Below are positions 226-14,400 of a stretch of 16,039 nucleotides of DNA, piece by piece; the first letter of the stretch is position 1; each line of letters starts with the position of its first letter. The DNA comes from a virus (Duplodnaviria; Heunggongvirae; Uroviricota; Caudoviricetes). The position numbers were made by a program, and so were the translations under genes. Where the stretch lies: IMG/VR virus record IMGVR_UViG_2681813230_000004; one strand, given 5' to 3'. The notes beneath the pieces are model-generated. The model searched no databases, was not told the DNA's origin, and saw nothing but the letters and a program-made list of their open reading frames with translations.

Positions 226-279
226 GATTTTGGGGAGTAATATTTTGGTAAGGCTTCAAGGTTCATGCTCGTTCTCCAC

Positions 280-1329
280 TTACGCCAGTACGCCAATTGC
301 CAGCGCGCGATCGATAAAACGAAATATCAGCTCCAGTTGGGAGCCATACTTATCTTCAAATGCCACTGTATCCGTATGCAGCTCGTTGTGATGCTTTCTG
401 CACAAAGGCAACACAAAGAGATCATGTGCTTTTGTTCCCATTCCGCCCTGCCCGTGACCAATCAGATGATGCGGATCGTCGGCTGGCATACCGCAGCAAA
501 CACACGGCTGTGTCTTAACCCAACGTGTGTATTTCTCCTTAACCCAGCGGCGACGTTTAGGCAGCTTCATGAAAGATTCCGGAGACTCTGGATCAACGGT
601 GATGCTTACCACCGTCTTTTCCTGTGGTGATTTTTGTTGCTGGTGGGCGTAAGGCAACGGTGCAAGATTTTTTGTGCGTTGTTTCAATATGCTGGTGGCG
701 GTCTGCTCTCCCGGTACGATGTCGCTTTCGCGGTACACCGAGCAGATTTTTTCCGCTGGTAATCCCAGCGAACGACGCGATACAGCCTCAGGTAGTGCAT
801 CCACCACCTGATTGCAGACCGCCCACCAGGATAATTCAGCCAAAGATAATTCCCGCTCCTGCGTACCGCTTATTGCGTGACGGATGACGTCAATCACCCA
901 TGCTGTCAGATTTTGTTGAGCAAGCAGCTCCAGTGATTCCGATGTCTGGTCACGCAGTTGGTTGTCGCAGTGCCAGCACAACACCATTGCGCCGGTACCA
1001 TAACGGTGAATGACTGTTTCAGTGTGATGGTAATCGCCATTAGGCCACTGGCAGGATGTAACATGACGTAATAGCCAGTCGGACAATGCGCCAACGCCGC
1101 CAGCAGCACGAATCACCCGTTCGTTACTAAAAAACGGCAGCAATGTTTTGTCTTCCGCCAGCGGCTGGCGAACGGCAGGAACGACTCCGGATGGCAGATT
1201 ACGCATGCTTTTTGGTTCCGGTTCCACCAGCACTCGAGGATTATGAAATATCTGTATGGATTCACGGCCCGGCTTAAGGACCACCAGCCCAAGCTCAGGC
1301 ACCAGAACAGGTCTAAGTAATACCCGCAC
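280..1329 (-). CDS. ydfU: YdfU-like prophage protein with C-terminal DUF968/HNH-like Cys-His motif
   Basis: Long minus-strand ORF. The C-terminal segment CVCCGMPADDPHHLIGHGQGG...LPLCRKHHNELH is a Cys/His HNH-like motif (DUF968/Ref-like). Start placed at GTG 1329 (GGAGG 4 nt upstream, about 349 aa, the length I recall for K-12 YdfU); the ORF track's extended start at 1368 or ATG 1206 are alternatives. Confidence 0.6.
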   Translation of the reverse strand: MRVLLRPVLVPELGLVVLKPGRESIQIFHNPRVLVEPEPKSMRNLPSGVVPAVRQPLAEDKTLLPFFSNERVIRAAGGVGALSDWLLRHVTSCQWPNGDYHHTETVIHRYGTGAMVLCWHCDNQLRDQTSESLELLAQQNLTAWVIDVIRHAISGTQERELSLAELSWWAVCNQVVDALPEAVSRRSLGLPAEKICSVYRESDIVPGEQTATSILKQRTKNLAPLPYAHQQQKSPQEKTVVSITVDPESPESFMKLPKRRRWVKEKYTRWVKTQPCVCCGMPADDPHHLIGHGQGGMGTKAHDLFVLPLCRKHHNELHTDTVAFEDKYGSQLELIFRFIDRALAIGVLA

Positions 1330-1330
1330 G

Positions 1331-1609
1331 TTACCTCCAGATCCGTTGCTGGAAAGTGCGGGACGCACGTGGTGGGCGTTCGGAATAAGGCAGCCTGACA
1401 GAGATTATCCAGTGCCGATAGTCGAGACTGAGAGCTTTCTTAACCTCGAACCCGCGCCTGCGGTAAGAATGAATCAGCCATTCGGCCTGTTCTGCAGTGC
1501 ATGGAGGGTGCTGGAACCATTCAGACTTGAATGCGTGAGAATACCGCCCGTGCGTGCAGGCAAGAACGGGCGAATTATCAGAATTGTAATATTTTGCGTT
1601 GCGTGCCAT
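1331..1609 (-). CDS. hypothetical 92-aa protein
   Basis: ORF with GGAG about 8 nt upstream of its ATG. Its stop lies 1 nt before the ydfU GTG, suggesting coupling. No family recognised. Confidence 0.35.
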   Translation of the reverse strand: MARNAKYYNSDNSPVLACTHGRYSHAFKSEWFQHPPCTAEQAEWLIHSYRRRGFEVKKALSLDYRHWIISVRLPYSERPPRASRTFQQRIWR

Positions 1610-1675
1610 CGGTTTTCTCCGGTGGCACGGTGTTACTCAGCGGGAGTTCAGCCCCGCGCAAGATTGTAGATGAGT

Positions 1676-1927
1676 TTATTCTCCTGAAAAAGCAGAAAAG
1701 CCAGCTTTTATTCCGATCTCTTTCAATGCCTGTAATGAAGTGACAAACTCACCTTCGCGCAAGATAAATCCGTCCGTGACCCGAGCATCCACAAAATTAA
1801 TTAACGCAGCCCCATTCTTTCGCAAACACATAATGCGGTAATGACTAACAAGATTTCCATTTTCAACGCACACAGCATAGAGGCCATCTTCACAAAAAAT
1901 TTTACGCAGTTCTTCGATGTTCATCAT
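1676..1927 (-). CDS. rem: Rem (Qin prophage small protein, 83 aa)
   Basis: 83-aa ORF in the position of rem between ydfU and hokD; length matches K-12 Rem. Confidence 0.7.
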   Translation of the reverse strand: MMNIEELRKIFCEDGLYAVCVENGNLVSHYRIMCLRKNGAALINFVDARVTDGFILREGEFVTSLQALKEIGIKAGFSAFSGE

Positions 1928-2042
1928 CAGAATCCTTCCGGATAATTAGCTCTCCCCTTTAAGGGACCATCCCTCTTATCCCTGCGCGCTACTTAAGTAT
2001 TTTTGATTCTATTCCGGCACCGTCCAGAACTTCAAACGCGTT

Positions 2043-2076
2043 GAAAATAAAAACAAAAACCCGCCGAAGCGGGTTA
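2043..2076 (-). terminator. Rho-independent terminator of the relB-relE-hokD operon
   Basis: On the minus strand, an AACCCGC-TTCG-GCGGGTT hairpin (2058..2075) is followed by a T-rich tract (TTTTTGTTTTTATTTTC), about 70 nt downstream of the hokD stop. Confidence 0.6.
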
Positions 2077-2143
2077 AGTGCGGGTGCGTTGAGGATGCCT
2101 GCCACATCAGAGGTGGCGAGGGATTTCTCCCCCGCCGGGTCTC

Positions 2144-2299
2144 TTACTCCTCAGGTTCGTAAGCTGTGAAGACAGCGACCTCCGTCTGGCCGGTTCGGAT
2201 TCGTACCTCGCAGAGGTCTTTCCTCGTTACCAGTGCCGTCACTATGACGGTTAAACAGATGACGATCAGGGCGATTAACATCGCCTTTTGCTGCTTCAT
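2144..2299 (-). CDS. hokD: HokD (RelF) type I toxin, 51 aa
   Basis: Hand translation of the reverse complement gives MKQQKAMLIALIVICLTVIVTALVTRKDLCEVRIRTGQTEVAVFTAYEPEE, a Hok-family sequence. Below the ORF-track size cut-off. Confidence 0.85.
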   Translation of the reverse strand: MKQQKAMLIALIVICLTVIVTALVTRKDLCEVRIRTGQTEVAVFTAYEPEE

Positions 2300-2370
2300 A
2301 GCCTGCTTCTCCTGTCAACGCAAAGCAGAAGTGTCACCTTCGGTGCGAAACAGAGATGTCATGCTTTGGT

Positions 2371-2658
2371 TCAGAGAATGCGTTTGACCGCCTCGCTATA
2401 TACTTCCGAGCGTTCTCTTTTCCCAACAGAAATCACGAAAACGACAACTTTCTCGTCTATAACCTGGTATACAAGGCGATAGCCTGAAGACCGGAGCTTA
2501 ATCTTGTAACAATCAGGCATACCACGGAGCTTGTTTGCTTCAATCCGGGGTGACTCAAGTACTTCAACCAGCTTCTTTTTCAACTGTTCACGTACCGTCG
2601 AGCCCAGCTTTCGCCATTCCTTTAGTGCCCGCTCGTCAAAATCCAGAAAATACGCCAT
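2371..2658 (-). CDS. relE: RelE mRNA-interferase toxin (95 aa)
   Basis: Translation MAYFLDFDERALKEWRKLGSTVREQ...VISVGKRERSEVYSEAVKRIL matches RelE. Confidence 0.9.
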   Translation of the reverse strand: MAYFLDFDERALKEWRKLGSTVREQLKKKLVEVLESPRIEANKLRGMPDCYKIKLRSSGYRLVYQVIDEKVVVFVISVGKRERSEVYSEAVKRIL

Positions 2659-2897
2659 CAGAGTTCATCCAGCGTCACACGTACTGGCTTAGGATTACGA
2701 AGCCGTTCTTTCACTATCTCCACAAGTTCAGCATCTTCATCACTCAGGAGTGTCTGTTTGAACGGCAAGCGTTCATTGTCAGCGATATACTCGAGCATGA
2801 GACGAAGCGCTTCAGAAGGAGTTACACCCATTTTTTCAAGCGCGGCGTAAGAACGCGCTTTAAGTTCATCGTCAATACGCAGGTTAATGCTACCCAT
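2658..2897 (-). CDS. relB: RelB antitoxin (79 aa)
   Basis: Translation MGSINLRIDDELKARSYA...PKPVRVTLDEL matches RelB. Its stop overlaps the relE start by 1 nt. Confidence 0.9.
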   Translation of the reverse strand: MGSINLRIDDELKARSYAALEKMGVTPSEALRLMLEYIADNERLPFKQTLLSDEDAELVEIVKERLRNPKPVRVTLDEL

Positions 2898-2908
2898 GTC
2901 TTACACCT

Positions 2909-2934
2909 CTTGTAATTACAAATGTCATTACAAG
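2909..2934 (-). promoter_or_regulatory. relBE operator/promoter region (relO-like dyad repeats)
   Basis: CTTGTAATTACAAATGTCATTACAAG lies immediately upstream of relB and contains repeated TTGTAAT/ATTACAA half-sites. RelB/RelE autoregulation at such a site is established. Confidence 0.55.
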
Positions 2935-3227
2935 TATCGCACTACAACATGCTTAGGGCAAGTCACGAAGGAAGTCAGAAAGTAGTCGTAAGAACGGTGA
3001 TCACTGTCCGCTTTGTGCCAGGAGCAGCCATTGCTAAGTCCATCCTGTATTGTGCAGGTCAGCTCGTTTTTAAAGAGTCCGGCCATCATCTTACTGGTAC
3101 AGACACCATATACTTTGTGACGGTCAGGCTACATATGCACAACTCAACTTATTCATCTATTTTTTGCTTTAGCATGTCAGTGTTGCTTTCTCGTCGGCGG
3201 GTGAGCGGTGACCTGACCTGTCGATAA
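2922..3227 (+). CDS. ydfV: YdfV-like hypothetical protein (101 aa)
   Basis: 101-aa ORF between relB and flxA, the position and length of K-12 ydfV. Its start codon lies inside the relO dyad, so coding status is uncertain. Confidence 0.35.
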   Translation: MSLQVSHYNMLRASHEGSQKVVVRTVITVRFVPGAAIAKSILYCAGQLVFKESGHHLTGTDTIYFVTVRLHMHNSTYSSIFCFSMSVLLSRRRVSGDLTCR

Positions 3228-3379
3228 AGGAACGTAGCACGTTTTATGCAACACCCGCATGCGGCAGAAAATTATTGCCGAACGTTTACCCCTGTCAACA
3301 AGCTTTACTTTCTGAGGCGCGCCAGCCCGCGAGGAAAACAATCTGAACATCAAACAATTAATGACACAAGAAATACGAT

Positions 3380-3406
3380 TAAAGATTTTTTTGTGCATGC
3401 CGATAG
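3380..3406 (+). promoter_or_regulatory. sigma-28 (FliA)-type promoter of flxA
   Basis: TAAA (3380..3383), a 15-nt spacer, then GCCGATAG (3399..3406), against the consensus TAAA-N15-GCCGATAA. It sits about 24 nt upstream of the flxA ATG, which is preceded by AGGAG. Confidence 0.6.
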
Positions 3407-3429
3407 TGCTTTTTTAAAAGGAGAAATCT

Positions 3430-3762
3430 ATGTCTGTCACAATTCAGGGAAATACCTCAACCGTTATTTCAAACAACTCCGCCCCGGAAGGAACATCAGA
3501 AATAGCCAAAATCACAAGACAAATTCAGGTGCTGACTGAAAAGCTTGGGAAAATCTCATCGGAAGAGGGGATGACGACACAGCAGAAAAAAGAAATGGCT
3601 GCATTGGTACAGAAGCAAATTGAAAGCCTCAGGGCTCAACTGGAGCAGTTGTTAAGGCAGCAGGCAGAGAAAAAGAATAAAGACGCGACAGTTCAGCCTG
3701 ATAAAAAAGAAGAGAAAAAAGACGATACAAATACCGCTGGCACCATTGATATTTACGTCTAA
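3430..3762 (+). CDS. flxA: FlxA (FliA-regulated prophage protein, 110 aa)
   Basis: Translation MSVTIQGNTSTVISNNSAPEGTSEIAKITRQIQ...GTIDIYV matches FlxA. Confidence 0.85.
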   Translation: MSVTIQGNTSTVISNNSAPEGTSEIAKITRQIQVLTEKLGKISSEEGMTTQQKKEMAALVQKQIESLRAQLEQLLRQQAEKKNKDATVQPDKKEEKKDDTNTAGTIDIYV

Positions 3763-3776
3763 GTGACAGCCGTATT

Positions 3777-3799
3777 GTGGCCCTCATCGGGCCACTTTT
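3777..3799 (+). terminator. Rho-independent terminator after flxA
   Basis: GTGGCCC-TCATC-GGGCCAC hairpin followed by TTTT, starting 15 nt after the flxA stop. Confidence 0.6.
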
Positions 3800-4198
3800 C
3801 GCCATCAGCCTTTTCTTTAAAGACATATTATCTTTGTATCATTTCTGATAGTTAACATTACAAGATATAAGTAATGGACGCACTCCCAATTAGTCTATTT
3901 AAATCGCCACGAGTTTAACTGACAACCCATGATCAATTATGAATTGCAACTATTTCTGTAGTCACTTTTGTGGGGACAGTCCACAAAACTGCCAACTTCC
4001 GCTTCTTGCTCTTAGCGGACATTAGCATAGGCTATTTACCATAACGCCTCATTACGCGCACCGCCCAGACTGACTCAGCGCGTTTCTGGCATATCCCCGG
4101 TAAAACAAGTAACAAACCACCCGAAAATGAACACCAGAAACGCGACTTAAGAATCTACCCTATGAATGGATATGCACTCAACCGAATCGATCTTGGTT

Positions 4199-5540
4199 TC
4201 AATCTTTTTTATCGGGATCAGGCTTCTTTTTAGGTAACTTCGGGGGCTTAACTTGCTGATGACTTTGCGTTCGGCGCGTAAGCCAGGGATGGTCAGCTTT
4301 AGGTTTAACATAGTATTTTGAGCGTAAATCAATACGGGCATTATCCACTCGTTCATGGACACTCTTTTCATCATCCAGTGGTATAGGCTCCGGGCCATCA
4401 ACATACTTTTCCCAGCCCAGCGCTTTCCCGTCATACAGAACGTTAATTTCACCGTCAAAGTTCTCGCATACAGTAACAACCGAATGCCTAAGTCGATATC
4501 CCCGGCCCTCACTGCGTACCTGAAACGCACTGCTTTTGTACTGGAAAGTGAGATTTTTAGACAGAACGCGCTTCGCCTGTAGGCTGAAGATATAACCCAG
4601 TTCCTCTTCAGAATGGTGCACATCAAGATGAGCATTATCAGTAGTACGAGGCGACGTAGCGAACCGGTTGTTATAGGCTTCAATAAAGGTCGGCAACCAT
4701 GCATTTGCTGTTTCAATATCACTGATATTCTGAAGCCGCATTTCTTTGACCAGCCTGTCCTGTAGTGTCTGATTGGCGCGCTCTACCCGCCCTTTTGCCT
4801 GCGGGCTGTTGGCATGGATTGGCTCGATGCCCAGTGTCTTTATCGCACGAGTGAACTGGGTCAGCTCACCTTCCCGCTCTGGGTTATTTACCCTGAATAT
4901 ACTGTGTCTATCAGAGTAGAGAGCGAGCGGTACGCCATGATCATTAAGGTAACCCCGGAGGGTTTCCATGTAAGCCCGGGTTGTTTCAGCAGGCACAAAA
5001 CGCAACGCCATCAACGCACTGGTGGCATCATCAATGAAAACGATCAGTGTACATCTGGGGCCTCGATTTTCAAACCAGTCATGAGGTGAGCCATCAATCT
5101 GGATCAGTTCACCGTAAGATGGTCGTCGCATGCGGCGTTGATATATACGGGCAATTTTACGACGGCGTTCACGCCATACCCCCCTCTTCTATCATCCACT
5201 TTCTGAGAGTTTCAACGGATAAAGATAAACCGTGTATCTCGCGCAATTTTTCGCACGCAAACGTAGGTCCAAAATCAGCGTAACGGCCTTTGAGGAGTGA
5301 AATTACTGTTGCTCTGAATTCAGTAGAAAAGGAATTATTAGGACGCTTTCCACGTCGGTGGGAAACCAGACCAGAAGGCCCTTCATTTCTATACCGTTGC
5401 ACCAGACGTTTAACCTGCCGAATAGAAATGCCAATGCGTGCCGCAGCTTGTTCCTGAGTAATATGTCGATTAATTGACTCCTGAATAATCTGAAGTCGGT
5501 GGAGTTCCTTATGACTCATCGTAACAGTTTCTTTGGTCAT
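4199..5540 (-). pseudogene. rve (DDE integrase-core) transposase-like gene, IS481-like, split into a 123-aa HTH part (5169..5540) and a 310-aa catalytic part (4199..5131)
   Basis: The N-terminal ORF has an HTH-like segment (ITQEQAAARIGISIRQVKRLVQRY). The C-terminal ORF has integrase-core signatures (LYSDRHSIF; PQAKGRVERANQTLQDRL). Both are on the minus strand in frames offset by +1, and the offset sits at a G6 run (plus-strand C6 at 5179..5184). Removing one G would give a single ORF of about 440 aa. Confidence 0.65.
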
Positions 5541-5874
5541 GAAAAATCCCCCAGAGAATTGTCTGGGGACATTTTAGAATGGTTCAAAGGGGACATTACA
5601 GCTTGGTGTTAACAATAGCCTGCTTCTCCTTGCCTTTCGGCACGTAAGAGGCTAACCTACATGTGTCTGGCATGAAATTGGCCTCAGATTAATGTTAAGC
5701 GTCTTGCAGGACGCGTAATGTTAACTGGGGCTTTTCTCTACCTGCCGTTGGTGTTCGTGCCCGAGGCAGATAGCCTCAAGCACCCGCAGTCATTCTACTT
5801 AACTAAGATTTCCCCGCAAACCGTTTTTGTCCAGCACAGTAAATATCCAACTAAACCAATGGAGTTCGCTGTAT

Positions 5875-6054
5875 TTACCGCCAGTATTCAATGCACATGA
5901 CCGCCATGAACACCCCTAAAAAAAGGGCATTTATATATCCAAATATTAATATCAAAACATCAACTTTTTCCATATACCTTGCTGTGAAGATGATGGGCAT
6001 ACATGATGCGAACAACCAGAACGCAACAAACAAAAACTGCAATGCGTTTTTCAT
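5875..6054 (-). CDS. hypothetical small membrane protein (59 aa, two predicted hydrophobic helices)
   Basis: ATG at 6054 is preceded by a perfect AGGAGG 4 nt upstream. Translation MKNALQFLFVAFWLFASCMPIIFTARYMEKVDVLILIFGYINALFLGVFMAVMCIEYWR is strongly hydrophobic. It lies in a visibly AT-rich stretch. Confidence 0.4.
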   Translation of the reverse strand: MKNALQFLFVAFWLFASCMPIIFTARYMEKVDVLILIFGYINALFLGVFMAVMCIEYWR

Positions 6055-7206
6055 TATTCCTCCTACAATCAATGTGCAATTACATTTAAACACACCTCAA
6101 TTTGGCCGGACATATAAATATCTAAACCAGAAAAAATCACTTACATAGCGTTACAAACTCTTTAGTCTAAAGGTTCATCGTAAAACATTCCCCATACTTA
6201 TCAGTCCGTTCCGCGCCAGGTAGCTCATTGCCTTATCTGGCAACCTGTAATCAGGTTTCCGCTTTTTCAGTTGGCTGGTCGTTTAACCGACATAGTTAAC
6301 CCATTAATCTAGTTGCCGGATGTTGGTGGATTTTCGCGTTTTAGTTGTTCATAAAAGTGCACAGCTTTAACCAATTCTTCTGATGTAACCGGGACTGGTG
6401 AGGCAGTGAATAAGGCCTGAATTTGATAGTTCGGCCTGTCGTTACAATCCTCTTTTTTCGGTACATATTTCCAGTCACCAGACCACTACTTCCCCTGAAA
6501 GTCCGTAACGCCTTTTTTCACGTAGCGATATCGCCATGTCACTGGTTTTGCTTGCCCCGCCGTTTCATGCCCTTCCTGATAATTAATCTCGCTCATTCAT
6601 CGCCCCACTCATCACAATATGCTTCGACCGGAGTTTTTCCCGCTTCATAGTCATCACGCTAGGATTCGACATCAGCAGCACTTCCACCGCGTAACTCACC
6701 ATAGTCCATTAATAGTTCATCCCGCTCTTCAAAACTGATGTTATATTTAGCTGAACAAAAATCAGCCACTTTGTTCTTCCTCATCGTCTTTTATTTCGTG
6801 GTATGAGTAATTGCAGTAGTTAAAGAAAATTTCTTATGCTCCGTCATGAATTTCATCAGGTGTTGCGTCATCGTCCACTTCGAATACATCCTCAAAATCT
6901 CCACCAGCTATTCCCGTTTCAATAATAATTTTGAACTTTCGCATTTCACTACCGCCCTTTCGGGCGGCCTCCTGATGTTCTGAGGGTGCAGAAATCCATC
7001 CGGTTAAGGATTAAGTTTTATTTACAGAACTGAATTTAATTATTCAGATATACGTATCTGTAACCTTACGAATCTACTCACTGGATGCCTCTTTCATAAA
7101 AATAATCCAGTGGGTTTTATCGTTTTTTCCCTGTTCGTTGACAGATAACAGGCTTTCTATCTGTCAGTGCCAGAATCTGGCTTACCGGTATTTGCGTTTC
7201 ATTCCA

Positions 7207-7563
7207 TTAAAAAATCAGAACGCCGTGCGGCCTCAACACCCGAAAAGCTTCTTTAAATCTCTGTCGCAAATCATCACGCCAGGCATCTTTATTCAGCCGT
7301 CCATATTTCTTTCCCATCCAGGCGTTATCACCAACACGCTCAAGATGCGGAGGGTCTAATACAACCATCGAAAAAGATGCGTCTGCAAATGATAATGCAC
7401 GAAAATCTGCGATAATGTCAGGGCTGATAATCAAGCGTCTCCCATTGCGTAATGTGTATCCTTCTTTTCTGATATCGCTAAATATCGCCCGTTCGTCAGA
7501 CTTATCGAACCAGAACATGCGGCTGCCACAGCACATATCAAGAATGGTTGCCGGTGCACTCAC
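7207..7563 (-). CDS. SAM-dependent methyltransferase core, probably a remnant (118 aa)
   Basis: Motif I-like ILDMCCGS near the N-terminus and an amino-MTase motif IV-like VVLDPPH about 60 aa later. Too short for a complete Rossmann-fold MTase. GTG start; an in-frame stop lies 6 codons upstream. Confidence 0.45.
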   Translation of the reverse strand: MSAPATILDMCCGSRMFWFDKSDERAIFSDIRKEGYTLRNGRRLIISPDIIADFRALSFADASFSMVVLDPPHLERVGDNAWMGKKYGRLNKDAWRDDLRQRFKEAFRVLRPHGVLIF

Positions 7564-7982
7564 TGCGCCACGTCCTGAAAATTACCCTGATAGAAAGCCA
7601 GTATGCGCTGCATAACTTCGCTCTTCCGGCACTCGCGACAGATTATGTTTAGGCGACTGTCGTAGCGACGTATTTCTCCGTCAGGTGATGACCAGATAAG
7701 GTCCGGATCAACCACAGCAGGTTTCTTCACCTTTGCCCTCGAGAGTTTTTTGCGGGCGTTTTGCCAGTCCTTACGCGCCTGTTCAGAGGGGAATAACCCG
7801 TAGCCGGAGTTGTATACATCGCCACTGGCTACCAGCTCTCTGGCAAGAACGCTCATCAGATATCTAGTCGCACCTGTTTTAGCTTCCAGTTGCCGTAACG
7901 TCTCACGGCCGCTCTGGCGCACGAGTTCCACCACCTGCCATTTAATTTTTTCCCGCTCTTCTTGTGTAAAAACTTTTGCCAC
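7560..7982 (-). CDS. hypothetical phage protein (140 aa), possible winged-helix segment
   Basis: ORF directly downstream of the replication gene on the same strand. Its stop overlaps the MTase-like ORF start by 2 nt. No family recognised. Confidence 0.45.
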   Translation of the reverse strand: MAKVFTQEEREKIKWQVVELVRQSGRETLRQLEAKTGATRYLMSVLARELVASGDVYNSGYGLFPSEQARKDWQNARKKLSRAKVKKPAVVDPDLIWSSPDGEIRRYDSRLNIICRECRKSEVMQRILAFYQGNFQDVAQ

Positions 7983-8022
7983 AAGTCCCCCTTAAAATTA
8001 CCTCATGACCTGAAATCAACAC

Positions 8023-8988
8023 TTATCCTCTGAAACCAGGCGGAATTTCTGTATCCGGTTCAGAAATATGATTAACACAACGCTGTACAGGTGAACGTCC
8101 CAGGCGGATGACCAGTTCGTCCCATTTTTCGCGGAGCTTTGACGGGCTCATGATGTTTTTTACCCAGAATGAATCTCGCTGAACCCGACCAAACATTTCG
8201 CAAATTTGTCTGTGGCTTCTGCCATCCAGCATCCGCATTGTGCGCACGTCATTGGCCCAGGCAGTCCAGTTAGGCTCTTTTGGTCGCATGATCTCGCCAT
8301 CATCACTGGCTGCCTGTTCGTAGAGACCCACGATCCGCCCCCAGATCCACTGCGCACACGCCAAATCCTCCCTGCTACCCCACTGGCGTTTTTTCGCACT
8401 AAACACAACCGCGTCGGAGTTCCGGGTTAAAAAATCCTGTTCAGTCGTCTGCGGGTCCGGTTGCGAAGCTTCCGGACGAAAAGTGTTTTTATTCTCTGTA
8501 GTAATCTCTGTTGTATTCTCTGTAAGATCATCAGGCCATTTTGACCCGATGACATTGGGTCGTTTTGAATCAATGGAGCGTTTCATTTTGACCTCTTCCA
8601 TCGTGTCATTTTGACCTGATGGAGCGGCGCATTTTGAACCGATGGATTCGCTCAATTTGCCACCATCTAAAAGCTCGCTCCCATAGTTGATCGTGTAGAA
8701 ATTGGTCATATCGCGCTTTGATTTATTGAGCTTTTCACAACGCAAAAGCCCCAGCGTTTTCAGACTTGCAAACGCGCGCTTTAACGTTGACTCTGACCAG
8801 AATGGGAACTGTTCCAGCCATTGTTCCGTTGTGTTATAAATCCAGCGAACACCATCACATTCCATGCCGGAGTTGGTATCTCTCAACCAGTAGTGCAGTT
8901 GTTGCAAAACAATGGCTTCGTTTAAGCCAATTTTCATTGCCAGCTGCGTGTTTATAACCAGTGGGCGTTCAGCAAAAAGAAGGCTCAT
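8023..8988 (-). CDS. phage replication initiation protein (lambda O-like, iteron-binding)
   Basis: ORF of about 321 aa from ATG 8988 (the ORF track extends it to 9042). The N-terminal region is HTH-like (MKIGLNEAIVLQQLHYWL). The central low-complexity linker is encoded by iterons. Function assigned by analogy to lambda O gene organisation. Confidence 0.65.
   Translation of the reverse strand: MSLLFAERPLVINTQLAMKIGLNEAIVLQQLHYWLRDTNSGMECDGVRWIYNTTEQWLEQFPFWSESTLKRAFASLKTLGLLRCEKLNKSKRDMTNFYTINYGSELLDGGKLSESIGSKCAAPSGQNDTMEEVKMKRSIDSKRPNVIGSKWPDDLTENTTEITTENKNTFRPEASQPDPQTTEQDFLTRNSDAVVFSAKKRQWGSREDLACAQWIWGRIVGLYEQAASDDGEIMRPKEPNWTAWANDVRTMRMLDGRSHRQICEMFGRVQRDSFWVKNIMSPSKLREKWDELVIRLGRSPVQRCVNHISEPDTEIPPGFRG
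8537..8647. repeat. replication-origin iterons inside the replication gene
   Basis: Five copies of CATTTTGAC-like 15-20-bp units start at 8537, 8561 (CGTTTTGAA), 8584, 8607 and 8630, with 23-24 bp spacing. A TCTCTGTA triplet repeat lies at 8498..8528 and an AT-rich segment follows at about 8650..8740. Confidence 0.6.
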
Positions 8989-9490
8989 AATTCCATCCAG
9001 CTTTTTGTTGGTATTGCTGTCGATACGCAAGCTTGAAAGCAATTGCTTTTTCTATAAGTTCGTCAGTTTCACGATCCACTACGGCAGGATCAGCAAAAAG
9101 CAGTCCGGACTCCACCACATCGCCATATTCTTTGTTTAACCCGGCGATCATGCACGTGATGCTTTTTCCGTCAGTAATTTCACGATACAACCTGAAATCA
9201 CTAATCCGGATAGCCTCCATAATCGCAGGCACTAGCGCCGTGAACTTTTCACGCTTATCCCTGGTGTCGATAGCCTTCCAGCGTTCGAATATCTTCACTC
9301 GATTAACACCAAGCGCTCGCTGATCAACCGCGCCACCTTCATCTGTGACACGCTGAACATCGATGTTCGGGCGCTCTTTCAAAGCCCAGAATGCTTCAGT
9401 GATTAATATCGTCGCCTGCTCCTGTGTCATTCCTGGTCGACATATCCAGGCATCCAGAGCCTCACGAGCCTGTTCAGGAGTGATTTTCAT
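8969..9490 (-). CDS. hypothetical phage early protein (173 aa), in the cII/YdaT position
   Basis: ORF immediately downstream of the dicC-like gene and upstream of the replication gene, same strand. No motif recognised. Confidence 0.45.
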   Translation of the reverse strand: MKITPEQAREALDAWICRPGMTQEQATILITEAFWALKERPNIDVQRVTDEGGAVDQRALGVNRVKIFERWKAIDTRDKREKFTALVPAIMEAIRISDFRLYREITDGKSITCMIAGLNKEYGDVVESGLLFADPAVVDRETDELIEKAIAFKLAYRQQYQQKAGWNYEPSFC

Positions 9491-9701
9491 TGTTCAACCG
9501 CCCCGCCCGCTTCGTCTTACGATATTCATCATAAACTTTGGGATCATACTGAAGCTCCCCGCCAGATGCCTCCTGTAGACGCATCGCGCGACCTTCAGGA
9601 ACCAGTATCCCCCAAGCAGCAACACTTGCCAGCCTCACTCCTGCGGCATTGGCAAGCTTTGTTTTGCTGCCAAAAAAAGTAATTGCGTCAACTTTAAGCA
9701 T
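9474..9701 (-). CDS. dicC: DicC-like Cro-type regulator
   Basis: Small ORF divergent from dicA. The C-terminal sequence ...VPEGRAMRLQEASGGELQYDPKVYDEYRK... resembles DicC/YdaS-type Cro proteins. ATG at 9701 is preceded by GAGGGGG; the ORF-track start at 9704 is a TTG. Confidence 0.7.
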   Translation of the reverse strand: MLKVDAITFFGSKTKLANAAGVRLASVAAWGILVPEGRAMRLQEASGGELQYDPKVYDEYRKTKRAGRLNNENHS

Positions 9702-9714
9702 CAAATCCCCCTCT

Positions 9715-9732
9715 TGTTAGACTTTTCTAACA
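9715..9732. promoter_or_regulatory. operator, perfect 18-bp dyad TGTTAGACTTTTCTAACA, in the dicC-dicA intergenic region
   Basis: Perfect palindrome overlapping the dicC ribosome-binding region. A related half-site, TTAGAATTACCTAAC, lies at 9766..9780 just upstream of the dicA ATG. Confidence 0.55.
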
Positions 9733-9781
9733 TTATTGTGCGCGGGATACCTAAGTCAAGAAAAATTAGAATTACCTAACT

Positions 9782-10189
9782 ATGGATACAAGAACCCTGG
9801 GCCAGCGAGTTCTGGCGCGACGAAAAGAATTACGCTTAACACAACGAGAAGCCGCGCGCCTCGCTGGAGTTGCTCACGTCACAATTTCACAATGGGAAAG
9901 AGACGAAACCCAGCCAGTCGGAAAACGATTGTTTGCTTTAGCGGATGCTCTGAAGTGCTCACCTACATGGCTAATGTTTGGTGACGAAGACAAGGCACCA
10001 GTGCCTGCACAAGAACTTCATGTGGAAACAGAGCTAACTCCCAACCACAAAGAATTGATCGAATTATTCGATGCTCTTCCATCTTCCGAGCAGGAAGCCT
10101 TGCTGTCTGAAATGCGCGCAAGAGTAGAAAACTTCAACAAACTCTTCGAAGAAATGCTTAAAGCGCGTAAAAATAAATCAATAAAATAA
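9782..10189 (+). CDS. dicA: DicA-family repressor (HTH_XRE, 135 aa)
   Basis: The segment LTQREAARLAGVAHVTISQWER is an XRE-type HTH. Length, divergent arrangement with dicC, and position upstream of ydfA match DicA. Confidence 0.8.
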   Translation: MDTRTLGQRVLARRKELRLTQREAARLAGVAHVTISQWERDETQPVGKRLFALADALKCSPTWLMFGDEDKAPVPAQELHVETELTPNHKELIELFDALPSSEQEALLSEMRARVENFNKLFEEMLKARKNKSIK

Positions 10190-11231: not shown

Positions 11232-11289
11232 TTTCTGGTGACGTTTGGCGGTATCAGTTTTACTCCGTGACTGCTCTGCCGCCCTTTTT
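11232..11289 (+). ncRNA. dicF: DicF small regulatory RNA (ftsZ-targeting sRNA)
   Basis: TTTCTGGTGACGTTTGGCGGTATCAGTTTTACTCCGTGACTGCTCTGCCGCCC followed by TTTTT matches the DicF sequence from memory, in the expected position between ydfC and dicB. Confidence 0.8.
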
Positions 11290-11928: not shown

Positions 11929-14400
11929 ATGAGTAAAGTCTTTATTTGCGCCGCTATTCCTGACGAACTGGCAACAAGGGAAGAAGGCGCTGTGGCTGTA
12001 GCCACAGCCATTGAAGCTGGCGACGAACGCCGTGCTCGAGCAAAATTTCACTGGCAATTCCTGGAACATTATCCGGCTGCTCAGGACTGCGCTTATAAAT
12101 TTATTGTCTGCGAGGATAAACCTGGTATACCCCGCCCTGCCCTCGATTCATGGGATGCTGAATATATGCAGGAAAACCGCTGGGATGAGGAGTCTGCTTC
12201 TTTTGTCCCGGTTGAGACTGAATCCGATCCGATGAACGTCACTTTTGACAAGCTGGCCCCTGAAGTACAGAACGCTGTCATGGTTAAGTTCGACACATGT
12301 GAAAACATCACCGTTGATATGGTTATTAGCGCACAGGAATTGTTGCAGGAAGACATGGCAACATTCAACGGACATATCGTTGAAGCGTTGATGAAAATGC
12401 CAGAAGTTAACGCCATGTATCCGGAGCTTAAGTTGCACGCCATTGGGTGGGTTAAGCATAAATGTATTCCTGGTGCTAAATGGCCCGAAATTCAGGCAGA
12501 GATGCGCATCTGGAAAAAACGTCGCGAAGGTGAACGCAAGGAAACCGGAAAATACACGTCTGTTGTTGATCTCGCCCGCGCCAGAGCCAATCAACAGTAC
12601 ACTGAAAATTCAACAGGAAAAATCAGCCCGGTCATTGCTGCCATTCATCGCGAATACAAGCAGACATGGAAAACACTGGATGACGAACTGGCCTACGCTC
12701 TCTGGCCTGGTGATGTGGATGCCGGAAACATTGACGGCAGCATCCATCGCTGGGCAAAAAATGAAGTTATCGACAACGACCGCGAAGACTGGAAGCGTAT
12801 CTCGGCATCAATACGCAAACAGCCTGATGCCCTTCGCTACGACCGCCAAACTATTTTTGGCCTTGTCCGTGAGCGTCCGATCGACATTCACAAAGATCCC
12901 GTAGCACTGAACAAATATATCTGCGAATACCTGACGACAAAGGGCGTGTTTGAGAATGAAGAAACAGACCTGGGCACTGTTGATGTTCTCAAGTCATCAG
13001 AAACACAAACTGATGCAGTGGAAACTGAGGTATCTGATATCCCAAAAAATGAAACCGCACCGGAAGCTGAACCATCTGTAGAGCGTGAGGGGCCGTTCTA
13101 TTTCCTCTTCGCAGATAAGGACGGAGAAAAATACGGTCGCGCAAACAAACTTTCTGGTCTGGATAAGGCACTGGCTGCTGGCGCCACTGAAATCACAAAA
13201 GAAGAATATTTTGCCCGAAAAAATGGCACATACACGGGCTTACCGCAAAATGTAGATACCGCTGAAGATTCAGAACAACCAGAGCCGATAAAAGTTACCG
13301 CTGACGAAGTAAACAAAATTATGCAGGCAGCCAATATCAGCCAGCCTGACGCCGATAAGTTGCTTGCTGCATCACGTGGTGAATTTGTTGAAGGGATTAG
13401 TGACCCGAATGATCCGAAATGGGTTAAGGGGATCCAGACCCGCGATTCTGTGAACCAGAACCAGCATGAATCGGAACGGAACTACCAAAAAGCGGAACAA
13501 AACAGCCCAAATGCGTTACAAAACGAGCCAGAAACGAAACAGCCTGAATCAGTGGCGCAACAGGAAGTGGAAAAAGTCTGCACCGCCTGCGGTCAGACCG
13601 GCGGCGGCAACTGCCCTGATTGTGGCGCGGTGATGGGCGACGCAACATACCAAGAAACATTCGATGAAGAGTATCAGGTTGAAGTTCAGGAAGATGATCC
13701 GGAGGAAATGGAAGGCGCTGAACATCCACACAAGGAGAACGCTGGCGGCAATCAGCATCACGATAGCGATAATGAAACTGGCGAGACGGCAGATCACTCA
13801 ATTAAGGTGAACGGTCATCACGAAATCACATCCACCAGCAGGACGTGTGACCATCTAATGATCGACCTTGAAACCATGGGAAAAAATCCTGATGCCCCGA
13901 TCATCTCAATAGGTGCAATATTTTTCGATCCGCAAACCGGAGATATGGGACCGGAATTTAGTAAGACTATCGATCTGGAAACTGCTGGCGGAGTCATTGA
14001 TCGGGACACCATTAAATGGTGGCTTAAGCAATCACGCGAAGCGCAATCGGCCATTATGACCGATGAAATCCCGTTAGATGATGCACTGTTACAATTGCGG
14101 GAATTTATCGACGAAAACTCCGGTGAATTTTTTGTTCAGGTTTGGGGAAATGGAGCCAACTTCGACAACACGATTTTGCGCCGTTCATACGAACGGCAGG
14201 GGATCCCCTGCCCGTGGCGTTACTACAACGATCGCGATGTACGCACAATCGTTGAGCTGGGGAAAGCCATAGACTTCGATGCCAGAACGGCTATTCCATT
14301 CGAAGGTGAGCGCCATAATGCACTTGATGACGCCCGTTACCAGGCAAAATACGTTTCAGTTATCTGGCAAAAACTGATCCCGAGTCAGGCTGATTCTTAA
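11929..14400 (+). CDS. prophage exonuclease (823 aa) with C-terminal DEDDh 3'-5' exonuclease domain; full-length counterpart of the K-12 ydfE fragment by position
   Basis: The C-terminal 180 aa carry the DEDDh motifs: MIDLETMG (D646, E648), WGNGANFDNTIL, and HNALDDARYQ (H796, D801). A CxxC...CxxC cluster sits at about residues 551-563. The central segment DADKLLAASRGEFVEGISDPNDPKWVKGIQTRD resembles RecE (exonuclease VIII) as I recall it. Confidence 0.75.
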   Translation: MSKVFICAAIPDELATREEGAVAVATAIEAGDERRARAKFHWQFLEHYPAAQDCAYKFIVCEDKPGIPRPALDSWDAEYMQENRWDEESASFVPVETESDPMNVTFDKLAPEVQNAVMVKFDTCENITVDMVISAQELLQEDMATFNGHIVEALMKMPEVNAMYPELKLHAIGWVKHKCIPGAKWPEIQAEMRIWKKRREGERKETGKYTSVVDLARARANQQYTENSTGKISPVIAAIHREYKQTWKTLDDELAYALWPGDVDAGNIDGSIHRWAKNEVIDNDREDWKRISASIRKQPDALRYDRQTIFGLVRERPIDIHKDPVALNKYICEYLTTKGVFENEETDLGTVDVLKSSETQTDAVETEVSDIPKNETAPEAEPSVEREGPFYFLFADKDGEKYGRANKLSGLDKALAAGATEITKEEYFARKNGTYTGLPQNVDTAEDSEQPEPIKVTADEVNKIMQAANISQPDADKLLAASRGEFVEGISDPNDPKWVKGIQTRDSVNQNQHESERNYQKAEQNSPNALQNEPETKQPESVAQQEVEKVCTACGQTGGGNCPDCGAVMGDATYQETFDEEYQVEVQEDDPEEMEGAEHPHKENAGGNQHHDSDNETGETADHSIKVNGHHEITSTSRTCDHLMIDLETMGKNPDAPIISIGAIFFDPQTGDMGPEFSKTIDLETAGGVIDRDTIKWWLKQSREAQSAIMTDEIPLDDALLQLREFIDENSGEFFVQVWGNGANFDNTILRRSYERQGIPCPWRYYNDRDVRTIVELGKAIDFDARTAIPFEGERHNALDDARYQAKYVSVIWQKLIPSQADS

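Follow-up and report, generated by a model that had tools for sequence, protein, structure and literature searches.

A probable lambda-style replication origin inside the sole replication gene of a full-length Qin-type prophage

The closest described system is ori-lambda, in which the initiator gene itself holds an array of dyad-symmetric iterons, in the part that encodes the linker joining the DNA-binding domain to the C-terminal domain (PMC3349717; PMC7466680). These iterons are followed in the direction of transcription by an AT-rich block and then by a GTC...GAC palindrome, and the whole origin sits downstream of a cro/cII-type early operon. The locus described here has the same arrangement in each of these respects, and the six-iteron origins of the Stx phages 933W and P27 group with ori-lambda as its nearest system. 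A further class of lambdoid phages, the 'O-only' modules (LLS, mEp460_4F5), encodes an O homologue only and accounts for 34 of 314 Enterobacterales lambdoid phages; the sections of PMC12315714 that deal with this class state that no member has been studied and call its replication 'not yet understood', and they give no account of an origin, 12-mers, a palindrome or a DnaT-like tail. As far as that description goes, our locus resembles these modules in having a single O homologue and no helicase or loader within the same phage neighbourhood, and mEp460-type phages carry this same O-like gene.

The window, by which we mean the whole 16,039-nt stretch of DNA that was analysed, covers the early region of a prophage that is a full-length relative of Qin, the cryptic prophage of K-12. 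Its genes and signals are arranged as follows:

int, from 14744, plus strand
xis, plus strand
exoVIII, 11929-14400, plus strand
DicF RNA, 11233-11284, plus strand, Rfam match
ydfD/C/B, plus strand
DicA-type repressor gene, 9782-10189, plus strand
pR-like promoter, 9732-9759, minus strand, upstream of the cro-like gene, 10/12 in a consensus scan, putative function
DicC/Cro-type gene, 9474-9704, minus strand
cII/YdaT-like gene, 8969-9490, minus strand
O-like gene, 8023-8988, minus strand, open reading frame of 321 aa
DUF977/LygF/Ren-like gene, 7560-7982, minus strand, next gene after the O-like gene
methyltransferase fragment, IS and hok/sok, minus strand, after the DUF977/LygF/Ren-like gene
sok, 5614-5785, Rfam match
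flxA, ydfV, relBE, hokD, rem, ydfU and Q, minus strand, end of the minus-strand gene order

The Rfam scan returned sok and DicF only, with no match in the origin. Identity with the window was 98-99.8% for the isolated phage PhiR42_1 and, in the replication region, 97-98% for phages HannyBb and mEp460_ev081. K-12 Qin matches the window at 226-4383 and 9211-9794 and is without 4384-9210, the O gene included, confirming a preliminary description of this DNA, which held that K-12 Qin lacks the interval; this deletion may explain why the origin has gone unstudied. The origin segment was nonetheless present in 1,996 of 5,426 complete E. coli genomes, with the gene mostly annotated 'hypothetical protein'.

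A repeat search revealed six contiguous 23-bp near-palindromic iterons inside the O-like gene (8529-8667), followed on the gene strand by three 12-mers and a palindrome. On the sequence evidence set out below, the segment 8455-8667 is very probably the vegetative replication origin of this full-length Qin-type lambdoid prophage, located in the linker-coding part of its sole replication gene. In the direction of the gene, its parts are:

Iteron 1 (degenerate), 8645-8667, minus strand, GATGGTGGCAAATTGAGCGAATC
Iteron 2, 8622-8644, minus strand, CATCGGTTCAAAATGCGCCGCTC
Iteron 3, 8599-8621, minus strand, CATCAGGTCAAAATGACACGATG, 16/23 self-complementary
Iteron 4, 8576-8598, minus strand, GAAGAGGTCAAAATGAAACGCTC
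Iteron 5, 8553-8575, minus strand, CATTGATTCAAAACGACCCAATG
Iteron 6, 8529-8551, minus strand, CATCGGGTCAAAATGGCCTGATG, 16/23 self-complementary
Three tandem 12-mers (T)ACAGAGA(A/T)TAC, 8490-8525, minus strand, AT-rich candidate DNA-unwinding element
23-bp palindrome, 8455-8477, minus strand, GTCCGGAAGCTTCGCAACCGGAC, located where lambda has its palindrome GTCAGAGAATTC-TGGC-GAATCCTCTGAC

The iterons start at 8529, 8553, 8576, 8599, 8622 and 8645 (spacing of 24, 23, 23, 23 and 23) and comprise five good units and a degenerate one, the first on the gene strand, where the consensus reads CATCGGGTCAAAATGACCCGATG. Their self-complementarity (10-16 of 23 positions) exceeded a background of 5.5 ± 2.8. 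The core RGKTCAAAAYG occurred four times in 16 kb, always within the array (0.14 expected; 0 of 200 shuffles reached four). Since the 9-mer CATTTTGAC, with one mismatch allowed, showed no window-wide enrichment (6 found, 6.8 expected), we relied on this stricter core and on clustering; the iteron signal is one of clustering and phasing. Terminator-like matches at 8542-8562 were rejected, since they arise on the antisense strand from the palindromic character of the iterons.

The 12-mers, which fit ACAGAGA(A/T)TA(C/A), were also far commoner than expected, with four copies of ACAGAGAWTA in the window, three of them in the block, against 0.07 expected. GC content was lowest (27.5%) and the 40-bp duplex least stable, for the whole O-like gene, at 8480-8525 (the 40-mer being 8486-8525), on the 12-mer block, which is also the most conserved DNA of the gene (87-95% nucleotide identity with homologues at 35-70% amino acid identity). 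A full-text literature search with the 12-mer sequences retrieved unrelated primers only.

The preliminary description had reported five repeats at 23-24 bp spacing inside the O-like gene, as the lambda origin lies inside O. The repeats, their spacing and their location within the gene all stood, and the count rose to six. The TCTCTGTA triplet that it had mentioned is present as the 12-nt tandem at 8490-8525, which begins 8 nt before the start of the interval then proposed (8498-8740). Its AT-rich stretch holds for the 12-mer block and fails for 8668-8740, which we rejected as part of the origin: this piece encodes the conserved end of the N-domain, shows no excess of synonymous conservation and is ordinary coding sequence. 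The limits are accordingly corrected to 8455-8667; the palindrome at 8455-8477 falls outside the former interval and had not been described. The lambda-style reading of the array itself is supported by a repeat at the DNA level, synonymous constraint, a lambda-like layout and position in a linker predicted to be disordered, covariation with the initiator, natural alleles in which four iterons are gone, and the standing of this gene as sole replication gene in isolated phages of 97-99.8% identity.

We then examined the product of the O-like gene. The protein matched phrog_391 'replication initiation O-like' (E 1e-91), and the same gene is annotated O or 'Primosomal protein I' in PhiR42_1, HannyBb and mEp460; in the whole PhiR42_1 record it is the sole annotated replication gene. 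It had no match in Pfam and, in NCBIfam, a sub-threshold DnaT tail match only. The initiator is a mosaic of N-domain, linker, C-domain and tail, of which three parts are listed here:

N-terminal winged-helix domain, aa 1-105, 8674-8988, minus strand, presumed iteron binder with predicted recognition helix 66-78 and wing 82-100
C-terminal domain, aa 170-294, 8107-8481, minus strand, homologue of the lambda O C-terminal domain, Pfam Phg_2220_C in relatives
DnaT-like C-terminal tail, aa 301-321, 8026-8088, minus strand, VQRCVNHISEPDTEIPPGFRG

A full-length AF2 model (pLDDT 55) served for domain limits only; for the N-domain, a second model built on a deeper, 60-sequence alignment gave a winged helix (pLDDT 86, pTM 0.78). 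The N-domain family comprises 10,213 50%-identity clusters at E<=1e-3 and has no Pfam model; its best PDB fold matches were 4pql, 5kbj ('Rep-DNA complex') and 4pt7 ('initiator') (Foldseek E 5.5e-3 to 7e-2, TM 0.5-0.57). The linker (aa 85-175), which the origin encodes, had a pLDDT <50 and almost no secondary structure in the full-length model. Residues 170-294 aligned with lambda O 158-270 (BLASTP, 34% identity, E 7e-27), tblastn matches of this domain included lambda, 933W and phi80-type phages, and PF09524 matched relatives of the O-like protein. The N-terminal domain of the lambda O family (Pfam Phage_rep_O, PF04492) gave no match, and BLASTP aligned the C-terminal half only. In lambda the iterons (39034-39118) and the AT-rich block lie directly before the start of the C-domain match (39157), and they thus hold the same position as here.

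Residues 66-67, the first of the predicted recognition helix, changed together with the class of iteron core, in classes assigned by eye across ~25 loci:

W-S-E-S-T context (ES), iteron core GGTCAAAATGAC
W-S-S-D-T context (SD), iteron core GGGCAAATTGCMC
W-T-G-K-T context (GK), iteron core GGACAATTTGTCC

Further residue/core pairs were found in other iteron classes. Such covariation is the pattern that would be expected if the N-domain reads the iterons.

The C-terminal tail matched residues 159-179 of DnaT only (PDB sequences 2ru8, 6aep and 9zbt). Against the E. coli DnaT C-terminus, 14 of 21 residues were identical, or 19 of 21 with conservative changes, and the final IPPGFRG was the same; the NCBIfam DnaT model was matched at positions 160-179 of 179 (16 bits vs a cut-off of 201). 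Similarity to full-length DnaT was tested and absent, the N-terminal domain, linker and three-helix C-terminal domain all being missing. Because only the tail matches DnaT, the RAST name 'Primosomal protein I' is misleading. An earlier paper noted that DopC, an O-derived protein, carries a DnaT C-terminal motif (PMC5509034).

Homologues of P, DnaC and DnaB were lacking after the gene here and in mEp460, as well as in two related loci (L085 and L086), and none is present in the whole PhiR42_1 record. Across homologous loci, the 2.2-4 kb downstream contained a gene for a loader or helicase at 0 of 20 loci ending in (I/V)PxGF(R/K)G vs 30 of 50 others (p=1.3e-6), and the exclusion held within Gammaproteobacteria alone (0 of 20 tail loci vs 13 of 20 others; p=1.3e-5). 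Loci whose proteins end in ...WNSPEAWENTL or ...DWADNGLGM have a P homologue next, and those ending in GFSEQDYG... have DnaC plus DnaB. We infer from these sequences that the tail may replace a phage loader by engaging host primosome components; a 2026 preprimosome paper and a 2026 review, consulted for the function of the DnaT tail, yielded nothing on residues 160-179.

The palindrome was found in ~25 Enterobacterales loci as GTCmGGTTkC-N3-GmAACCnGAC, 12-24 nt after the last 12-mer, with the compensatory variants TTGC/GCAA, TTTC/GAAA and TTCC/GGAA. Over 21 palindrome sequences, 88% of cells paired and 7 of 10 pairs had changed on both sides, a level that 0 of 500 shuffles reached; these sequences were chosen by searching for palindromes, so the paired fraction is inflated, but the compensation is not. 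Lambda, the phi80-type mEp237 and PHB10 have palindromes of the GTCAGAGAATTC-TGGC-GAATCCTCTGAC type at the same place.

Together, these features suggest the following course of initiation. An early rightward transcript from the pR-like promoter, which by its position would cross cro, the cII-like gene and O, and hence the origin, would provide the O-like initiator. Judging from the fold, the dyad symmetry and the covariation, winged-helix dimers of the N-domain would then bind the six iterons to give an O-some-like complex. Position, low duplex stability and the lambda analogy suggest that this complex would destabilise the adjacent 12-mers (3 x ACAGAGAWTAC). Since the sequence of the 12-mers and not merely their AT content is conserved, they are probably contacted specifically, perhaps as single-stranded DNA. 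The palindrome would form the right boundary of the origin, as in lambda. Finally, comparative genomics points to the lambda-O-like C-domain and the DnaT-like tail as the parts that may recruit the host helicase-loading machinery directly, because no P, DnaC or DnaB is encoded. A search between 4350 and 12766 for DnaA boxes (TTATCCACA, <=1 mismatch), the mark of DnaA-dependent iteron origins of the plasmid oriV type, found none.

Some O-only lambdoid phages grow only with the help of host recombination, and their main mode of replication may therefore be other than origin firing. An alternative account is that the iterons are real initiator sites used mainly for autoregulation, copy control or exclusion, with replication starting by recombination or PriA-dependent restart. 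The lack of an encoded helicase loader would suit such a scheme, as would the origin of the initiator tail in a restart protein and the dependence of the related O-only phage LLS on host recombination for growth, a type that PMC12315714, in its treatment of this class, describes as not understood. Yet the 12-mers and the palindrome are at least as conserved as the iterons, for which a purely regulatory array would not readily account, and both layout and position copy ori-lambda; we regard this account as unlikely.

A functional origin in this particular copy could also be questioned, since iteron 5 has a change private to the window in its conserved GG (8570 is T here and C in relatives, so that GGTTCA reads GATTCA, G-to-A on the gene strand), an IS and a truncated methyltransferase gene lie nearby, and the palindrome is imperfect, its arms matching at 8 of 10 positions and so more weakly than those of relatives. 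Decay does occur in E. coli: 290-aa alleles of the gene (P0018, L084) are without exactly 93 nt (24+23+23+23) between iterons 2 and 6, and four iterons are gone. This loss resembles the iteron-deletion ori mutants of lambda. The anatomy would then be right and the window's copy a relic that no longer fires. Against this, the O gene is intact, the segment 8440-8680 differs from that of the isolated phage PhiR42_1, which has the same IS, by 1 base in 241 (at 8570), and the palindromes of L085 and L086 show the same 8/10 arm match, that of L086 being identical to the window's. We consider a decayed relic slightly less probable still than a purely regulatory array, and a working origin remains our preferred reading.

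We next asked at which level the array is conserved. When the window was compared with seven homologues (35-70% amino acid identity, identical residues only), synonymous codons were identical in 74-95% of cases at aa 108-168, as against 33-50% in the N-domain and 37-53% in the C-domain, and six-way codon invariance reached 13 of 18 in the origin vs 6 of 54 elsewhere (Fisher p=2e-6). The iterons start in codon phases 0,2,1,0,2,2, so that one DNA word is translated in three frames, making this a DNA repeat and not a peptide repeat. At 12-mer sites, which we defined by peptide pattern and not by codons, Glu was encoded by GAG in 133 of 148 cases vs 46% elsewhere (p=7e-27), and the preceding Thr by ACA in 106 of 110 vs 25% elsewhere. 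Four loci (L027, L052, L059 and L060) have some 12-mer copies 11 nt apart, read in another frame. That the periodicity reflects no more than a repetitive peptide linker can practically be dismissed: the linker peptide is conserved and the 12-mer period is divisible by 3, encoding TENT/TEIT repeats, but the three reading frames of the 23-nt units refute this for the iterons, and the frozen synonymous sites, the GAG and ACA preferences and the out-of-frame copies all speak against it.

This constraint extends well beyond the window. A scan with one genome per species yielded 80 loci, and the three-part layout recurred in homologues from Enterobacterales, Vibrionaceae, Pseudomonas and Firmicutes. 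Arrays of 3-6 units at 23-nt spacing followed by 2-5 12-mers were found in homologues from Trabulsiella, Edwardsiella, Scandinavium, Enterobacter, Citrobacter and Izhakiella, and likewise in those from Xenorhabdus, Pantoea, Photobacterium, Serratia and Pseudomonas. A natural variant, L006, carries a fourth 12-mer. The layout was unchanged in Firmicute-type loci (Staphylococcus, lactobacilli, Peribacillus, Tissierellia), which often shared the GGTCAAAATGACC core as well. In 52 of 71 loci two or more 12-mer copies lay at gene offset 330-600, and 149 of 152 in-gene matches fell there. The codon preference was also seen in the Firmicute-type loci taken separately (Glu as GAG, 31 of 36 vs 38%; p=1e-8). 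This cross-phylum bias, together with the copies in another frame, marks the 12-mer as a DNA-level element conserved across phyla. In Bacillus phage phiCM3, an unrelated N-terminal domain is combined with the same 12-mers and a palindrome upstream of a Phg_2220_C domain, which indicates that the C-terminal domain is accompanied by the right half of the origin, and the N-domain by the iterons.

It is possible, if somewhat short of probable, that the 12-mers and the GTC...GAC palindrome form a sequence-specific element, spread from Enterobacterales to Firmicutes, that travels with Phg_2220_C-type initiators whatever their DNA-binding domain, and that 'O-only' lambdoid phages can do without a helicase loader thanks to the DnaT-derived tail, which would link the origin-bound initiator directly to the host primosome or the DnaB-DnaC loading pathway. 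If so, the unwinding element would be specifically recognised by the initiator C-domain or by a universal host factor; conservation of the 12-mers across phyla suggests a role for the 'AT-rich region' beyond that of DNA that melts easily. With a defined origin, predicted specificity residues and mutual exclusivity of tail and loader, O-only replication becomes directly testable.

Compared with ori-lambda, then, the locus has an initiator whose C-terminal domain is homologous to that of lambda O (34-36% identity), and its iteron core GGTCAAAATGAC shares the centre TCAAAAYG with the lambda iteron TCCCTCAAAACGAGGGA. It differs in that the lambda iterons are 18-19 bp long with spacers whereas those here are contiguous 23-bp units, in that its N-domain has no sequence relationship with the lambda O N-domain, in that its AT-rich block consists of sequence-conserved 12-mers, and in that no P gene is next and a DnaT-like tail replaces the lambda O C-terminus. 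The RepA_N initiators of Gram-positive plasmids are encoded by rep genes that also contain their iterons, located between NTD and CTD. These proteins (4pql, 4pt7, 5kbj) gave the best matches to our N-domain model, likewise winged helices (Foldseek E 5.5e-3, prob 1.0, TM 0.57); however, the TM is moderate, generic ArsR/CodY winged helices score almost as well, there is no detectable sequence similarity (no Pfam match) and the C-terminal domain differs. Like the 13-mers of RK2 oriV and F oriS (PMC4081077) and the DnaA-trios, the 12-mers are short tandem repeats beside iterons, form the least stable part and are conserved beyond AT content, but they have no sequence resemblance to either and the likeness is by analogy only. 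Taken together, these comparisons support the reading of this locus as a lambda-style origin with a different DNA-binding domain, contiguous 23-bp iterons, conserved 12-mers, a palindrome and no loader.

At its C-terminus the O-like initiator carries the tail of the host protein DnaT (that protein's own C-terminal end), encoded in the window as follows:

8026-8088: DnaT-like C-terminal tail (aa 301-321 of the O-like protein), ending IPPGFRG

Across approximately 70 homologous loci (L003-L086), a gene for P, DnaC or DnaB was found downstream in none of the loci bearing a DnaT-like tail (0/20), compared with 30 of the 50 others; the tail and a downstream helicase loader or helicase gene are mutually exclusive in this set. 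Initiators with other tail types were paired with P, or with DnaC together with DnaB. The same 21 residues are the sole basis for the RAST name 'Primosomal protein I', which the origin-bearing gene carries in phage records; in most RefSeq E. coli genomes this gene is named 'hypothetical protein'.

Within the candidate origin, one element is shared across phyla:

8490-8525: 12-mer ACAGAGAnTAC, also present at homologous loci L045, L048, L050, L051, L059, L060, L065 and L094, among others

Conservation of this 12-mer at the DNA level spans Enterobacterales to Firmicutes, and it is also carried by Bacillus phage phiCM3, the initiator of which has an unrelated N-domain. In the adjoining palindrome, arm position 4 (column 4/20 of alignment A3; window 8458 and 8474) was mismatched as C.C, A.C or A.A in 16 of 21 sequences, which points to a conserved asymmetry at this position rather than a perfect dyad.

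The iterons themselves vary among relatives. Exactly four iterons (93 nt) are gone from some E. coli alleles of the gene (290 aa; locus L084, P0018-type proteins) with the reading frame kept, a loss that is an iteron-iteron deletion, and the E. coli prophages bearing these alleles are probably origin-defective. A single-nucleotide change is private to the window: position 8570 is T here and C in the near-identical phage PhiR42_1 and other relatives, a substitution that changes iteron 5 at its conserved GG and produces G140D in the initiator linker.

K-12 Qin bears a 4.8-kb deletion corresponding to window 4384-9210 (K-12 locus L088, junction 6358/6359). The left endpoint of the deletion falls within the IS transposase ORF (4199-5131), the right one within the cII/YdaT-like gene; ydfW and ydfX of K-12 look like truncated remnants on either side of the scar. 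Neighboring features of the window include:

5614-5785, minus strand: sok antitoxin RNA (Rfam), of a hok/sok module adjoining the IS
7207-7563, minus strand: 118-aa ORF downstream of a DUF977/Ren-like gene
11233-11284, plus strand: DicF sRNA (Rfam)

Methyltransferase-domain matches to the 118-aa ORF were partial, sub-threshold or marginal only; the ORF resembles a SAM-dependent methyltransferase gene that has been truncated.

Finally, many relatives of the initiator N-domain (among homologous proteins P0125-P0228) have lengths of 400-880 aa, with the domain present twice in tandem, an arrangement reminiscent of the two-winged-helix Rep proteins of plasmids.
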